From positions 510,001 through 542,000 of the forward strand of contig CP072208.2 of NCBI GenBank assembly GCA_015257795.3: 32,000 nucleotides of DNA, given 5' to 3'. Position 1 is the stretch's first letter, and every line of letters starts with the position of its first letter. The notes under the pieces were generated by a model. It had not been told where the DNA came from, did not search any database, and worked only from the letters and a program-made list of their open reading frames with translations. Source of the DNA: Candidatus Nanogingivalaceae bacterium (lineage in GTDB: Bacteria; Patescibacteriota; Saccharimonadia; Saccharimonadales; Saccharimonadaceae). This document shows, piece by piece, positions 9,434-16,389 of this stretch. The position numbers and the translations under genes are program-made.

Positions 9434-10480
9434 TTAAATTTCCAGCGGTTCTTGTTCTATTTTTAAGCCAAATTTTTCAAAAACCCTATCTTGAATTAAT
9501 TTTCTTGCCTGCGCTAATTCATCATAGCTTTTAGCTGAAATATTAGTTAGAACTAAAGCACTTCCTGGATGAACTCTCATTCCAAAAAACTCTCTCCCTT
9601 TTAAACCTGACTGTTCAATCAACCAGCCTGTTGGAATTTTATATTCATTACCAACCTTGAAAATAGGGATTCCTGGATATTTTTTTCGAAAATCTTCTGC
9701 GATACTCTCAGTTATTTTAACGTTTTTAAAAAAACTGCCCGCGCTCGGGATTTCTTCTGGATCAGGGAGTTTTCTTGAACGAATTTCCACTACCGCTTCC
9801 ATCACATCCTTAGAAGTTAAATCTTCTTCTTTAATGCCTTTTTTCTTTAGTTCATGTTTTAAGGTCTCATATTTCGGATCCTCTGGCCGACCTTTCGAAA
9901 GTTCAAGATTTATTGAGATCACAAAATATTTATCTTTTTTATCTCTTTTAAAGATACTATCTCTATAAGAAAGTTGACATTCTTCTTTAGATAGAGTTTT
10001 AATCTCTTCCGTCTCGATTTCAAAAACTTCAACGCCTTTTAAAATATCAACAACCTCTTGACCGTAAGCGCCAACATTTTGAATAGGCAATGCACCAACC
10101 GTTCCTGGAATCATTGCCATAGCCTCACAACCACTTAAGTTTTTCGAAACTGCAAATCGCACGAATTCGTCCCAATTAACTCCCGAATTAACCTTAAATT
10201 CGATTTTTTTGTCATCTTCAAAAACTTGCTCAAAACCTAAAATTTCGTTTTTAATTACAATTCCAGGAAAAAACTTGCTTCGAACGATCGTGTTGCTTCC
10301 ACCGCCCAGAATAAAAAATGGAATATTTTCTTTTTTAAAAAAGTGCACCGCCGCAGAAAAATCCTCAACACTTTTCACAACCGTAAAGTATTTTGCTCGA
10401 CCATCAAGTTTCATTGTTGTAAATTTGCCAAAATTAACATCCTGGAAAATCTCTAAGTTTTCGAAAACTATATTTTTCAT
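9434..10480 (-). CDS. murB: UDP-N-acetylenolpyruvoylglucosamine reductase
   Basis: 348 aa. FAD-binding region ILGGGSNTIV and C-terminal SAGSFFKN motif. Confidence 0.9.
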   Translation of the reverse strand: MKNIVFENLEIFQDVNFGKFTTMKLDGRAKYFTVVKSVEDFSAAVHFFKKENIPFFILGGGSNTIVRSKFFPGIVIKNEILGFEQVFEDDKKIEFKVNSGVNWDEFVRFAVSKNLSGCEAMAMIPGTVGALPIQNVGAYGQEVVDILKGVEVFEIETEEIKTLSKEECQLSYRDSIFKRDKKDKYFVISINLELSKGRPEDPKYETLKHELKKKGIKEEDLTSKDVMEAVVEIRSRKLPDPEEIPSAGSFFKNVKITESIAEDFRKKYPGIPIFKVGNEYKIPTGWLIEQSGLKGREFFGMRVHPGSALVLTNISAKSYDELAQARKLIQDRVFEKFGLKIEQEPLEI

Positions 10481-12299: not shown

Positions 12300-13571
12300 T
12301 TATAGATCGCTCGGCAACGGGAAAAGTCTTGCAAAATCAGCAACTTCTTTTTTAACTTTTGCGAGCTCTTTAGGGTTGTCACGATTTTCGATTGCAAATC
12401 TCATCCATTCGGCAATTCGCTCCATTTGTTCCTCTTTCATACCTCGAGAAGTTATTGCTGGAGTTCCTAGGCGGATTCCACTCGGCGTAAACATTGATAA
12501 CTTATCGTTAGGGATCGAATTAGCGTTTAGTGTTAATCCAATCTTATCCATCGCGCGTTCTGCCGCTTTGCCATCAATTCCAAAACTAGAATAAACATCA
12601 ACCAAAATTAAGTGATTCTTTGTCCCACCTGTAACAAGCTTAAATCCTCTTTTCGAAAGCTCTTCCGCTAGTTTTTTAGCATTTTTTACAACCTGATTAG
12701 CATAATTTTTAAATTCTGGTTGAAGAGCCTCATAAAATGAAACCGCTTTCGCTGCAATTGAGTGCATCTGCGGCCCGCCTTGCGTTCCTGGAAAAACACT
12801 TCTATCAATTAAAGTCGGCAGATTCTCAAGAGTTTTTTCTGGTTTTTTGAGCGGATTTCCCACTTTTCCGTTTGAGAGAATCATTCCTCCGCGTGGACCA
12901 CGCAGAGTTTTATGTGTCGTGGTTGTAACTACATTAAATCCATAGTCAAACGGGTTTTCAAGAACGCCGCCCGCAATTAGCCCAGCGATATGCGCCACAT
13001 CAGCCATTAACATTGCACCATATTTTTTACCAATTTTCGAAATTCGAGCATAATCTATTTCGCCAGGATATGCTGAAAATCCTACAAGGATAATTTTAGG
13101 TTTGTATTTTTCGGCCATTTCTTCAATTTGGTTGTAATTTATTTCACCATTTTCATCCAAACCATATCGTATAAAGTTATAGATTTTTCCACTTCTTGTG
13201 ACTGGTGAGCCATGTGTTAAATGACCACCTTGAGCTAAATCCATTCCAAGAACAGTGTCGCCGACCTCCAGCCAAGCATTATAAACTGCTTCATTTGCAT
13301 TTGCTCCACTATGAGGTTGAACATTTGCATGGTCGCATTTAAAAAGCTTTTTAGCACGTTCAATTGCTAAAGATTCAATAATATCTGTATTTTCCTGACC
13401 ACCATAATATCTTCTTCCGGGGTAGCCTTCAGAATATTTATTCGTTAAAACAGACCCGAGAGCTGCTAAAACCTCTCTCGAAACATAATTTTCGCTCGGG
13501 ATTAATTCTAACCCTTCTCGTTGGCGATATTCTTCACTTTCAATTGCGTCAAAAATTTTTTCATCAAACAT
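12300..13571 (-). CDS. glyA: serine hydroxymethyltransferase
   Basis: 423 aa. PLP-lysine motif TTTTHKTLRGPRGG. AAAGGAG SD. Confidence 0.95.
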   Translation of the reverse strand: MFDEKIFDAIESEEYRQREGLELIPSENYVSREVLAALGSVLTNKYSEGYPGRRYYGGQENTDIIESLAIERAKKLFKCDHANVQPHSGANANEAVYNAWLEVGDTVLGMDLAQGGHLTHGSPVTRSGKIYNFIRYGLDENGEINYNQIEEMAEKYKPKIILVGFSAYPGEIDYARISKIGKKYGAMLMADVAHIAGLIAGGVLENPFDYGFNVVTTTTHKTLRGPRGGMILSNGKVGNPLKKPEKTLENLPTLIDRSVFPGTQGGPQMHSIAAKAVSFYEALQPEFKNYANQVVKNAKKLAEELSKRGFKLVTGGTKNHLILVDVYSSFGIDGKAAERAMDKIGLTLNANSIPNDKLSMFTPSGIRLGTPAITSRGMKEEQMERIAEWMRFAIENRDNPKELAKVKKEVADFARLFPLPSDL

Positions 13572-13685: not shown

Positions 13686-13715
13686 TTGCGTTTTTTATAT
13701 CATAAGTAGTATAAT
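13686..13715 (+). promoter_or_regulatory. promoter TTGCGT-18-TATAAT; the -10 ends 6 nt before the ATG at 13722
   Basis: TATAAT at 13710-13715, then TCTATT, then ATG. No SD. Confidence 0.65.
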
Positions 13716-13721
13716 TCTATT

Positions 13722-15251
13722 ATGAATAATGAAAAATCCTACCTAGAAAAAATCGGTCAGTTAATTCAAGAATATCGGCTTCACCAAAATCTAACCCAAG
13801 CTGAATTAGCTGAAAAAATTGGTACATCGCAAAGCGCAATAAATCGCATCGAGAGCGGTAAACAAAATATTACCGTTGAAATGCTTGCACGTATTTCAGA
13901 GGAACTTTCTAGCGAAATTATATCTGTTAATTCCCAGAAAAAAACCAATTTTCGAGTTCATGGTGGCCGTGAGCTTTCTGGAGAAATCGAAGTTAAAACT
14001 TCAAAAAATGCTGCAGTTGGATTACTTTGCGCCTCTCTCCTAAACAAAGGAAAAACCACTCTTCACCATGTTGCAAAAATCGAAGAAGTTAATAGGATCC
14101 TTGAAGTTTTAAATTCGATCGGCGTCAAAACAAAATGGTTAAATGATTCCAATGACCTAGAAATTATACCACCAAATGAATTAAATTTCGAAAATATGAA
14201 TATTGATTCAGCTAAGCGAACTCGCAGTATTTTAATGTTTTTTGGACCACTCCTACATCAATATTCCAACTTTCAAATTCCTTTTTCGGGTGGTTGCAAT
14301 CTCGGAACTAGAACTGTTGAGCCACATCTTGCTGGTCTTAAGCACTTTGGGGCAAATATCGTTGCAGAAACGGATTATTACGATGTCATAAATGAACCCA
14401 AAAAGGTTGAAAAAGCTATTCTTTTGACCGAACGCGGTGATACAACTACCGAAAATATCATTATGGCCGCTGCGCTTTCAGGCCAAAAAATCACTATTCG
14501 CAATGCTAGTCCAAACTATATGGTTCAAGATTTGTGCTTCTTTTTAGAAAAATTAGGTGTTAAAATTGAAGGAATCGGTACTACAACATTAGTAATTCAC
14601 GGGGTAGATAAAATAAACAAAGATGTTGAATATTATGTTAGCGAAGACCCGATTGAATCTATTACATTCGTTGCTGTTGCTCTAGTGACAAATTCAGAAA
14701 TTACTATTAAACGCGCACCTATTGAATTCAACGAACTCGAGCTCGCAACGCTCGAACAAATGGGTGCAAAATTTGAAATTAGCCCCGAATATCTTTCGAG
14801 AAATAAAAAAACTCGCTTAGTTGATATTACCGTTAAAAAATCAAAGCTACACGCCGCAAAAGACAAATTGCATGCACTACCTTTCCCTGGGATAAATATG
14901 GATAATTTACCTTTTCTAGGCCTAATTGCCACAGCCGCAGAAGGTAGAACCTTAGTTCACGACTGGAGCTACGAAAATCGCGCAATTTATTTTACGGAAC
15001 TTTCAAAGTTAAATGCTAGAATTGAGCTCGTTGACCCACACCGTGTTTACATATCCGGTCCGACAAAATGGAAACCAGCTGACATTATCGCTCCAAGTGC
15101 GCTTCGCCCAAGTGTTGTTGTTTTGATTGCAATGCTTGCCGCGCCAGGAATTTCAACTTTGCGCGACGTCTACAATATTAATCGCGGATATGAAGACTTT
15201 GCCGAACGATTAAATTCGCTTGGCGCAAAAATTGAAACTTTATTTTCATAA
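13722..15251 (+). CDS. murA: XRE-family HTH domain fused to UDP-N-acetylglucosamine 1-carboxyvinyltransferase
   Basis: 509 aa. Residues about 10-65 (LTQAELAEKIGTSQSAINRIESGKQNITVEML) form a classic HTH_3 domain. The rest is a full MurA fold including the active-site loop GGCNLGTRTVEPH with Cys retained. Confidence 0.85.
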   Translation: MNNEKSYLEKIGQLIQEYRLHQNLTQAELAEKIGTSQSAINRIESGKQNITVEMLARISEELSSEIISVNSQKKTNFRVHGGRELSGEIEVKTSKNAAVGLLCASLLNKGKTTLHHVAKIEEVNRILEVLNSIGVKTKWLNDSNDLEIIPPNELNFENMNIDSAKRTRSILMFFGPLLHQYSNFQIPFSGGCNLGTRTVEPHLAGLKHFGANIVAETDYYDVINEPKKVEKAILLTERGDTTTENIIMAAALSGQKITIRNASPNYMVQDLCFFLEKLGVKIEGIGTTTLVIHGVDKINKDVEYYVSEDPIESITFVAVALVTNSEITIKRAPIEFNELELATLEQMGAKFEISPEYLSRNKKTRLVDITVKKSKLHAAKDKLHALPFPGINMDNLPFLGLIATAAEGRTLVHDWSYENRAIYFTELSKLNARIELVDPHRVYISGPTKWKPADIIAPSALRPSVVVLIAMLAAPGISTLRDVYNINRGYEDFAERLNSLGAKIETLFS

Positions 15252-15257
15252 TTAAAT

Positions 15258-15281
15258 AACTCCCGACACTGGGAGTTTTTT
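15258..15281. terminator. terminator between convergent murA and the 133-aa gene
   Basis: AACTCCC / GGGAGTT hairpin followed by TTTTTT. Confidence 0.75.
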
Positions 15282-15282
15282 A

Positions 15283-15684
15283 TTAATCTAGAGAACACTT
15301 GTGCTTATTATAATATTCTCTAGCATTTCTACACATACGATTAACAGTCTCAGAGCTATAATTGTTTATATTTTCAAGTATATACTTCATAACTCTCAAA
15401 TTAAATTTAACCACCGAACTTTCACTTAACTCTTCACCATTTAGGATTTCAAAAATTGTCATGATCTCAATCTCCGTATCAATATTCTCCATCTCAGAGC
15501 TTTCTCTAAGTATGTCTTGAGCTGCTAAAATTAACGATGATTCAATAATTGTTAATATTTTAATATATTCTTTCTCTAGACTCTGAAAGCTTACGTGAAA
15601 AGAGAGGAATTCCTGAAAAGTATTAACAAATTTATCATGCATATTCTCAGTTAACCTAATATCTTCAAGGTTCATTTTGGCCAT
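15283..15684 (-). CDS. hypothetical acidic all-helical protein (133 aa)
   Basis: Strong SD AAGGAGGA, own promoter. No TM segment, no recognisable motif. Confidence 0.65.
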   Translation of the reverse strand: MAKMNLEDIRLTENMHDKFVNTFQEFLSFHVSFQSLEKEYIKILTIIESSLILAAQDILRESSEMENIDTEIEIMTIFEILNGEELSESSVVKFNLRVMKYILENINNYSSETVNRMCRNAREYYNKHKCSLD

Positions 15685-15716: not shown

Positions 15717-15745
15717 ATTATACCATATTTTATATTTTTAGTCAA
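15717..15745 (-). promoter_or_regulatory. promoter TTGACT-17-TGgTATAAT for the 133-aa gene
   Basis: Read on the reverse strand. Confidence 0.7.
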
Positions 15746-15897: not shown

Positions 15898-16389
15898 TTA
15901 AAATTTTGGTTTAATTTCTGGTTGAAAATTTTTTGTAATATTTTGCGTGGATTGTGAGATTCCAGAAGAGCCATAAAAACCAGCCATTCCCGACTGGGAA
16001 ACATTATCGAATCGATTTTCGCTATCCATTCCTTGTGCTTCCATTCTCATTCTAGTTGCTCGGTCGATTTGATCACCGGTAACCGTATTTTTTTGGCGAT
16101 TAGAGTTAAACATATAGTCATTATTTTCTCTTTCAATACGCTTTTGACGAATTTGATCAAGGGCTGTCATTGATGATTCCATTTTAGTTTTTTGCGCCAT
16201 TCTTAGTTGACCTAATTTCGAATCACCATAAGAACGAATTCTTGATTTACGATAATCGACTGCCTGACGCTGACTAAAACTTTGTGTGCTAGCAGCGCCA
16301 AAACGTCTACCAGATTGAGCTTTAGCGTAACCGCTAGAGTGAGCAACTTCTTCCAAGTTAGATTTCACGACATAATCATTCAGTTTCAT
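15898..16389 (-). CDS. hypothetical hydrophilic, basic, Q/S/R-rich protein (163 aa)
   Basis: No TM or signal peptide, low-complexity. Promoter -10 lies 6 nt from the ATG. Confidence 0.6.
   Translation of the reverse strand: MKLNDYVVKSNLEEVAHSSGYAKAQSGRRFGAASTQSFSQRQAVDYRKSRIRSYGDSKLGQLRMAQKTKMESSMTALDQIRQKRIERENNDYMFNSNRQKNTVTGDQIDRATRMRMEAQGMDSENRFDNVSQSGMAGFYGSSGISQSTQNITKNFQPEIKPKF

Follow-up and report, generated by a model that had tools for sequence, protein, structure and literature searches.

Why would MurA, which catalyzes the committed, fosfomycin-targeted step of peptidoglycan synthesis, carry a DNA-binding domain? This question was raised by a gene in a stretch of 32,000 nucleotides (hereafter, the window; contig CP072208.2, positions 510,001 to 542,000) from a Candidatus Nanogingivalaceae bacterium, in which a helix-turn-helix (HTH) domain of the XRE type is fused to MurA. 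What is known about the control of MurA levels concerns mainly Firmicutes, with proteolysis and protein-protein control, and inhibition by UDP-N-acetylmuramic acid (UDP-MurNAc). Comparison of the gene with its relatives suggested that its product is probably bifunctional, acting both as a MurA enzyme and as the repressor of its own gene (a 'trigger enzyme'). The parts of the coding sequence were located as follows.

13722..15251, + strand: coding sequence of the HTH-MurA fusion, an uninterrupted open reading frame (ORF) of 509 aa, with the stop codon inside the coordinates
13764..13907, + strand: XRE/HTH_3 DNA-binding domain, aa 15-62 (Pfam E 4.5e-16), with the recognition helix T35-SQSAINRIE-S45
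13908..13946, + strand: inter-domain linker, aa 63-75, with a predicted local distance difference test (pLDDT) score <50 at residues 68-72 of the AlphaFold2 (AF2) model
13947..15239, + strand: MurA (UDP-N-acetylglucosamine, UDP-GlcNAc, enolpyruvyl transferase) domain, aa 76-506, from profile and PDB matches and a Foldseek template modelling (TM) score of 0.93-0.96
14295..14297, + strand: codon of the catalytic-loop Cys192 (E. coli Cys115, the fosfomycin target), from the alignment

Both domains were recovered by profile searches. Pfam HTH_3 (PF01381) matched aa 15-62 with 59.1 bits against a gathering cutoff of 23 (E 4.5e-16), the HTH_19 and HTH_31 profiles were also above their cutoffs, and EPSP_synthase (PF00275) matched aa 80-497 over profile positions 2-417 of 417 (E 8.7e-48). 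Moreover, the NCBIfam MurA subfamily PRK09369 was matched with 333.6 bits, above its cutoff of 297, and the PDB sequence matches over aa 76-507 were MurA enzymes throughout, none of them with an HTH. An earlier note, made from the letters of this DNA alone, had described an XRE-type HTH at residues ~10-65, fused in frame to MurA, and both statements were borne out by the single ORF and the Pfam matches. The same note had set the start at 13686, where a weak -35-like hexamer begins; the coding sequence starts at 13722.

The predicted structure agreed with this division. In the AF2 model, which was built from a 41-sequence alignment, pLDDT was 90.3 overall and >90 in the MurA body (75-508), where a dip was found only at the catalytic loop. 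The HTH consisted of four helices (2-21, 26-33, 37-44, and 52-62) with pLDDT of 83-87, and the linker at 63-74 was of low confidence. Foldseek gave TM(target) of 0.93-0.96 to MurA structures (1UAE, 1A2N, and 5U4H), the best fits being closed, liganded forms. In this model, the HTH appears as a module on a tether, an arrangement shared with one-component regulators. The closest solved HTH sequences in the PDB search were those of 434 repressor, C.Esp1396I, SinR, and HipB, with the best chains at E 3e-5 to 6e-5. These are dimeric proteins that bind short palindromes, and several of them autoregulate via sites overlapping their own promoter.

Since draft metagenome-assembled genomes can yield fused calls through a frameshift or misassembly, the joining of a small XRE gene to murA by such an artefact was considered; nothing that speaks for it was found, and its probability is negligible. 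The protein search returned >120 clusters with both domains at 72-100% identity from many independent samples, with identical or nearly identical ORFs of 507-513 aa in dozens of them, and the exact 509-aa protein was encoded on dozens of independent contigs of up to 692 kb. The fusion was also present in the closed genome of a cultivated saccharibacterial strain and in RefSeq isolates of Streptomyces, Kitasatospora, and Nonomuraea, and the junction SEI[IV]SL...F/LR[VI].GG was itself conserved. A frameshift or misassembly, which the earlier note had named as what could undo the fusion, was excluded by this recurrence.

The window was assigned to Saccharibacteria, the closest match being 'Candidatus Saccharimonas sp.' at 90%. 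A scan of one genome per GTDB species gave at least 596 loci with the fusion architecture. Over residues 5-507, the same fusion was found with 59-62% identity in Streptomyces, Kitasatospora, Actinacidiphila, Nostocoides, Dermatophilaceae, Actinopolymorpha, and Pseudonocardiaceae, and also in Nonomuraea. RefSeq names the protein either MurA or 'helix-turn-helix domain-containing protein'. The earlier note had pointed out that canonical MurA has no DNA-binding domain; the fusion is nevertheless not unusual, as the architecture occurs in at least 596 species-level genomes, includes Streptomyces MurA2, and is already named an HTH protein in RefSeq.

The proposal that the protein regulates its own gene was drawn from a DNA site that accompanies the HTH. 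The N-terminal 65 residues ranked with the best-conserved stretches of the protein; the recognition helix TSQSA[IV]NRIE.G.QN was almost invariant from Saccharibacteria (35-52% GC) to Actinomycetota (66-75% GC), and Y-L-x-R/K-I-G-x-L-I was almost invariant too. Just 5' of the start codon, a common dyad was found in every lineage, which reads ATATCA-N4-TGATAT in Saccharibacteria and ATCTCA-N4-TGAGAT in Actinomycetota. This site, termed O1 and written as ATMTCA-N4-TGAKAT, was exact in 57 of the 80 loci and had ≤2 mismatches in 79 of the 80 genes, with its end 9-13 nt 5' of the start codon. In 0.99 Mb, 66 exact sites were counted against 0.14 expected from composition-preserving shuffles, and nearly all of them were at the position of O1 or of a second, intragenic site, O2. 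The right half-site of O1 overlaps the -10 hexamer (TGATATAAT in Saccharibacteria; TGAGAT-TAnnnT in Streptomyces), so a bound protein would block RNA polymerase on a leaderless promoter. The corresponding elements of the window are given below.

13686..13691, + strand: weak -35-like hexamer TTGCGT, a 3/6 match to TTGACA, 18 nt 5' of the -10 hexamer, from reading the sequence
13697..13712, no strand: O1 of the window, ATATCA-TAAG-TAGTAT, left half perfect, right half with 2 mismatches
13710..13715, + strand: perfect -10 hexamer TATAAT with the ATG 6 nt further on, a geometry that is the same in all orthologues
13867..13882, no strand: O2-like intragenic site ATATTACCGTTGAAAT, 2 mismatches, spanning codons N49-M54, where relatives have their conserved second operator

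In the 6 nt between TATAAT and ATG, no Shine-Dalgarno sequence was read, and the fusion mRNA would therefore be leaderless or nearly so, in agreement with the earlier description of the gene as leaderless. The promoter was not listed by a consensus promoter scan because its -35 hexamer is weak; it was assigned from the perfect TATAAT and its conservation. The O1 site of the window fills the promoter spacer and covers the first 3 nt of the -10 hexamer, and 14 further contigs from this species group carry it unchanged. Across the window, 7 sites with ≤2 mismatches were found against 2.25 expected, and besides O1 and O2 none of them had promoter geometry.

The second site provided a further line of comparison. 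At +139..+154, the HTH codons N-I-S-L-E-M spell the dyad, which reads ATATCAGCCTTGAGAT in the Saccharibacteria loci L015-L021 and ACATCAGCCTTGAGAT in most Streptomyces-type genes. For O2, 39 of 59 actinobacterial genes and 8 Saccharibacteria genes were within 1 mismatch of the dyad. In O2, TGAGAT ends with the third base of a Leu codon, which was CTT in 39 of 58 actinobacterial genes; CTT accounted for 75 of the 3455 Leu codons in the same genes, and 39 of these 75 fell in this one column. Because a rare Leu codon is concentrated at this column, O2 is not a by-product of the peptide. The distance from O1 to O2 was 167-170 bp, approximately 16 helical turns, which is compatible with looping, though the coding sequence itself also sets this distance. 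O2 was variable among lineages and was absent in L005-L011, L013, and L014.

Two side observations concern these sites. In L017 (6134-6149) and L018 (6146-6161), NISLDM is encoded instead of NISLEM, and the change from Glu to Asp gives a perfect TGATAT right half of O2; judged from the codons, operator fit may perhaps have shaped the protein sequence there. In the Streptomyces loci L035 (5845-5860) and L045, extra operator-like copies (ATCTCATATCCGAGAT and TTATCTCGATGTCGAGATAA) lie ~110 nt 5' of O1, and these could be a third operator or serve the control of the divergent gene.

The palindrome might be a conserved promoter element only, for instance a site for a sigma-associated factor or an extended -10 flanked symmetrically, and have no relation to the HTH. 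In Saccharibacteria, its right half-site overlaps the -10 hexamer and provides a TG that resembles an extended -10. However, the left half-site was equally conserved, and the dyad was kept across phyla with different -10 consensus sequences. Moreover, the second copy is intragenic, in a place where a promoter would not be expected, and a rare codon maintains it, and the neighbouring, leaderless-looking promoter of murB in the window is without the palindrome. This explanation was accordingly regarded as decidedly unlikely.

To follow the site beyond the orthologues, relatives were taken from an exhaustive search of 50%-identity representatives, and HTH_3 was confirmed in the distant fused ones. 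Fused proteins were found down to 33-39% identity (P0131, P0135, P0145, P0156, P0157, P0165, and P0180), together with close unfused relatives (P0122, at 55% identity, P0123, P0127, and P0130). The operator was present at the promoter in 4 of 5 distant fused relatives (L081, L084, L086, and L087), while the contig of L085 was too short to judge. It was perfect in L081 (ATATCATATATGATAT, 12 nt before the ATG) and in L086, was symmetric with 2 mismatches and located at nucleotide position -10 in L087, and was found in L084 as 1-mismatch sites before the NUDIX and NTP-transferase genes heading the operon. Upstream of the four unfused relatives (P0122, P0123, P0127, and P0130), nothing better than 4 mismatches was found within 250 nt (0 of 4 with the operator). 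In this comparison, the operator appears to follow the HTH and not MurA. Moreover, no other protein with this recognition helix was encoded in the window or in loci L001-L101.

The earlier suggestion that MurA may double as a transcription factor thus gained strong comparative support, as 79 of 80 orthologues from two phyla have the palindrome over the -10 of their own gene, and it recurs with the HTH in distant relatives. Its other suggestion, that the HTH tethers MurA to the nucleoid, became less likely in the unspecific form, given a sequence-specific conserved site. More broadly, the HTH might be a protein-protein adaptor in the style of RodZ and MreB, or an unspecific tether, with the palindrome being the site of another regulator. 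RodZ provides a precedent of an XRE-like HTH that serves the cell-wall machinery without DNA binding, the linker of the AF2 model is flexible, and the closest unfused relative, P0122, which has no operator upstream, adjoins an mreB-like gene (L104:3-248 (-)). Against this, the Pfam matches were to HTH_3, HTH_19, and HTH_31 and not to the RodZ-type HTH_25, the closest solved HTH relatives are operator-binding repressors, the palindrome tracks the HTH in close and distant relatives, and none of the other proteins in the surveyed loci has this recognition helix. In the fusion, Pfam gave no match to HTH_25 or RodZ_C, and the HTH runs directly into MurA; a RodZ-like adaptor was rejected for want of an HTH_25 signal. 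Overall, an adaptor or tether was considered unlikely.

Further relatives indicated which genes the operator may serve. In L081 (1624-6082) and L087 (1504-6791), a catalytically dead HTH-MurA gene is divergent from an unfused murA-murB pair and is itself followed by ddl and/or a Mur ligase gene, and the operator lies in the shared intergenic region of 60-85 nt. In the Saccharibacteria clade L006-L011, a perfect operator, ATATCATGAGTGATAT, was found 9 nt 5' of the murB start (L006:367-382; also L007, L008, L009, and L011). These contexts of murB, murA-murB, and ddl/Mur ligase genes tie the operator to peptidoglycan-precursor genes. By its position, murB is a likely regulon member in clade L006-L011 but not in the species of the window. 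The murB of the window was tried as a target and rejected, its best upstream match having 3 mismatches. As a side observation, the Ddl of L081 is fused to a Peptidase_C39_2 domain.

Whether the fused protein is a working enzyme was evaluated by alignment with E. coli MurA, the numbering of which was verified on 1UAE. E. coli K22, N23, R91, C115, R120, D305, R371, and R397 are kept in the fusion as K95, N96, R168, C192, R197, D394, R462, and R488. The catalytic loop reads GGC192NLGTR197, and C192 and R197 were invariant in the Saccharibacteria/Actinomycetota clade. With the full fold and this residue set, the protein looks catalytically competent, as the description of a complete, apparently active MurA had held; the E. 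coli loop quoted with that description (GGCAIG...) was corrected, since the actual loop of 1UAE is GGCTIGARPVDLH. The position of E. coli D369 is Ser459 in the window protein and Pro in most of the clade, and Asp369 was present in all canonical MurA representatives aligned. In addition, the whole clade has G/D/T at S162/V163/G164 of the UDP-GlcNAc site.

A cultivated relative gave information on the number of MurA genes. In the Tn-seq tables of Southlakia epibionticum ML1, SEML1_0687 (1524 nt) is the same fusion, with PF00275 at 79-494 and PF01381 at 14-65, and lies between tRNA-His and glyA, matching the synteny of the window (PMC10633639 supplements). No other gene in the Southlakia table is annotated as a carboxyvinyltransferase, and SEML1_0687 was scored essential (PMC10633639 supplements). 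In the main text of PMC10633639, the fusion is not discussed, and the sole trace of the HTH in the literature searched is an automated Pfam column in the supplement. For the MurA count of the window's own genome, the gene table of Southlakia served as a stand-in. We infer that the fusion is the housekeeping MurA of Saccharibacteria, which for the genome of the window is carried over from the Southlakia orthologue.

The distant fused proteins differ in this respect. They were without C115, R120, and R91, and often also without R371/R397. With these catalytic residues lost, their MurA-like domain cannot be a transferase and has to be a sensor or regulatory domain. The window protein might likewise be mainly a transcription factor, with its MurA-like domain serving as a ligand sensor only and a separate MurA making the cell wall. 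This holds in the distant fused relatives, where an unfused murA adjoins in L081 and L087, and the window protein itself does not reach the cutoff of the murA equivalog and has another residue in place of D369. However, all catalytic or phosphoenolpyruvate (PEP)-binding residues tested except D369 were conserved in the window clade, and the Southlakia fusion is the only annotated MurA and essential. Moreover, the D369P and V163D changes were also present in the unfused members of the clade, some of which are on small-genome contigs (P0123, on a 641-kb contig). For the window protein, a sensor-only role was judged highly improbable.

Returning to the bifunctional protein, the following mechanism is proposed. 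The XRE HTH would most likely bind the palindrome ATMTCA-N4-TGAKAT as a dimer. As O1 lies between the -35 and -10 hexamers of the gene's own promoter, the bound protein would occlude RNA polymerase, giving negative autoregulation. The second site ~168 bp downstream, in the HTH-coding sequence of many relatives, might act through looping or as a roadblock, and in some lineages the same site may also control murB or a divergent murA-murB/ddl-mur ligase cluster. Both the binding of the HTH to the site and the resulting repression are inferred from sequence comparison. More speculatively, the ligand state of the MurA domain could modulate DNA binding, and this would provide end-product feedback on cell-wall precursors; the earlier note had suggested that UDP-GlcNAc or PEP might be sensed. 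Binding of UDP-GlcNAc closes MurA, and UDP-MurNAc together with a PEP-Cys adduct traps it. The closed UDP-MurNAc/PEP-Cys 'dormant' complex is a candidate for such a ligand state, and the MurA structures 3SWD, 3SU9, and 8D84 were among the Foldseek matches of the model.

Several points weigh against this proposal. MurA is normally monomeric, and a palindrome needs a dimer. The link between the HTH and the operator is comparative, and an unlinked regulator that recognizes the same palindrome might instead be its reader. In the window itself, O1 has 2 mismatches in the conserved TGA of its right half-site and O2 is also weak (2 mismatches); with both sites mismatched, regulation in this species may be attenuated or weak. 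As an enzyme, the fusion scored 313.7 against 392.7 on the NCBIfam murA equivalog TIGR01072, which is below the cutoff, and the change of E. coli D369 to Ser/Pro and of V163 to Asp extends across the whole clade, unfused members included. Judged from these replacements, the kinetics or the ligand could differ. Finally, the linker of the AF2 model was of low confidence, and the model shows no route by which the active site could act allosterically on the HTH.

One further element of the locus was found directly 3' of the fusion stop codon.

15258..15277, no strand: bidirectional, intrinsic-terminator-like hairpin

The fusion gene is monocistronic. It is divergent from glyA, which encodes serine hydroxymethyltransferase (SHMT) at 12300-13571 (-) with Pfam SHMT matches in identical loci, as the back-to-back arrangement described earlier had it. 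The murB gene is at 9434-10480 (-), 3.2 kb from the fusion gene, and folD is also close by. In a side observation, murB was found to lie directly after tRNA-Arg and to have a leaderless geometry as well (TATAAT at 10492-10487 (-), 6 nt, then ATG at 10480). Between murA and a tRNA cluster (His, Gly, Arg, and Lys), there are two ORFs of 133 and 163 aa, at 15283-15684 (-) and 15898-16389 (-), neither of which had a Pfam match. An operator-like sequence with 2 mismatches, ATACCATATTTTATAT, is located at 15720-15735, 35 nt 5' of the former ORF, in a geometry unlike that of O1.

The history of the family was examined with a neighbour-joining tree of the MurA domain with bootstrap. The fused, unfused, and pseudo-enzyme proteins formed a clade apart from canonical MurA with 100% bootstrap. 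Saccharibacteria and Actinomycetota grouped together with 96.5%; within this group, Actinomycetota were monophyletic with 100%, and Saccharibacteria with only 42%. Cultivated Saccharibacteria live on Actinobacteria according to the study of Southlakia (PMC10633639). Since Streptomyces has a MurA1 too and Saccharibacteria live on Actinobacteria, transfer between epibiont and host is plausible, with its direction left open by the tree.

From these results, a wider reading may be put forward tentatively, although we consider it somewhat doubtful as a whole. The MurA fold would be the ligand sensor of a new family of one-component regulators in Saccharibacteria, uncultured low-GC lineages, and Actinomycetota. 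The ancestral bifunctional form, to which the essential MurA of Saccharibacteria and Streptomyces MurA2 would belong, would report its own occupancy to the promoter via two operators ~168 bp apart, the second spelled by the HTH codons, the derived forms would be dead-enzyme sensor-repressors beside unfused murA-murB, and the clade would record transfer between epibiont and host. In the ancestral form, the signal could be the closed state locked by UDP-MurNAc/PEP.

If the proposal is correct, a MurA with its own repressor domain and operator would constitute a direct, self-contained feedback circuit. In Saccharibacteria, a phylum in which hardly any regulators are annotated, it would act in epibionts with reduced genomes for which this MurA is essential; in Streptomyces, it would act on murA2, a gene of sporulation and stress. 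Tests are feasible at once in genetically tractable organisms, namely, Streptomyces and the naturally competent Southlakia. Moreover, regulons could be predicted from the operator now defined, the relatives form a natural gradation from active enzymes to pseudo-enzyme sensors, and Saccharibacteria and their actinobacterial hosts become a candidate case of gene exchange. The presence of the architecture in databases limits the surprise; it is already known from there, and papers on Streptomyces already give the gene a name. The operator, the likely autoregulation, the pseudo-enzyme relatives, and the role of the DNA-binding domain are new here in that they are undescribed in the literature searched.

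Among known systems, the closest is Streptomyces MurA2 (SCO5998/sven5810/vnz_28735), which is an orthologue with 59-60% identity over residues 5-507, HTH included. The divergent neighbour in the Streptomyces loci was an aconitase gene. SCO5998 (MurA2) is divergent from SCO5999 in the same arrangement in the published passages on this gene (PMC12161575), and the SigB-type SCO5998 promoter described in PMC8346170 was located ~320 nt 5' of the gene in L054. The aconitase neighbour and the SigB-type promoter identify the actinobacterial orthologue as MurA2. In the passages of the Streptomyces literature that name it, murA2 is a developmental (BldM-WhiI) and SigB target (PMC8346170 for the SigB promoter), and the HTH of MurA2 is unmentioned in the passages naming murA2/SCO5998. 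In the literature searched, no paper was found on the HTH of MurA2, its operator, a regulatory role, or the pseudo-enzyme relatives, though absence there is not proof of absence. MurA2 shares O1, O2, and the leaderless geometry with the Saccharibacteria fusion; it differs in being the second of two MurA enzymes, with MurA1 present, whereas the fusion is apparently the sole and essential MurA of Saccharibacteria.

Two other conserved sequences were observed upstream of murA2. A long palindrome unlike O1, TTGTTCGCATAGTAGTAGAACAA, lies ~60-100 nt 5' of the gene in L041, L043, L048-L050, L052, L053, L066, and L080, and is presumably the site of another regulator or part of the divergent gene. The sequence GTCACCCGAAyGGACCCCCC was conserved 10-35 nt 5' of O1 in L042, L047, L054, L058, L060-L063, L068, L069, L073, L075, and L078. 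We take it to resemble a BldM half-site, which would agree with the BldM-WhiI footprint published for the promoter of murA2. As an activator site, it would lie directly 5' of the proposed autorepressor site.

Canonical MurA of E. coli and E. cloacae (1UAE, 1NAW, and 3SWD) has the same two-domain fold, with TM of 0.93-0.96, and the same catalytic residues. Compared with it, the fusion is ~30% identical, has 75 extra N-terminal residues comprising the HTH and linker, and carries D369 to Ser/Pro and V163 to Asp replacements. With respect to the HTH, the controller (C) protein of a restriction-modification system C.Esp1396I (3CLC/4IA8) and 434 repressor/Cro are dimeric XRE folds on short palindromes overlapping their own promoter, as is proposed here, and C-protein genes are typically leaderless. 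These proteins differ in being stand-alone, at ~70-80 aa, without an enzyme domain, and their operator sequences differ from that of the fusion. RodZ is similar in placing an XRE-like HTH on a protein of cell-wall synthesis; however, the HTH of RodZ (HTH_25) binds MreB and the protein is membrane anchored, whereas the fusion is without HTH_25 and has an accompanying DNA palindrome.

Joining an XRE HTH to an enzyme-type domain also has a parallel in PRK08154 ('anaerobic benzoate catabolism transcriptional regulator', HTH_3 and shikimate kinase), a weak N-terminal match of the fusion (E 6.9e-8), whose C-terminal fold is different and which has no cell-wall link. By analogy, the proposed function may be compared with that of enterobacterial NadR (NAD repressor/NMN adenylyltransferase/ribosylnicotinamide kinase) and BirA (biotin ligase/repressor), in which a pathway enzyme with an N-terminal HTH represses its own pathway. 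These differ in enzyme folds and pathways, the HTH of BirA is winged, and ligand control has been demonstrated there and is hypothetical here. As a trigger enzyme of this kind, the fusion would combine two domains that look intact with a site on its own promoter and, in one clade, with a site at murB.

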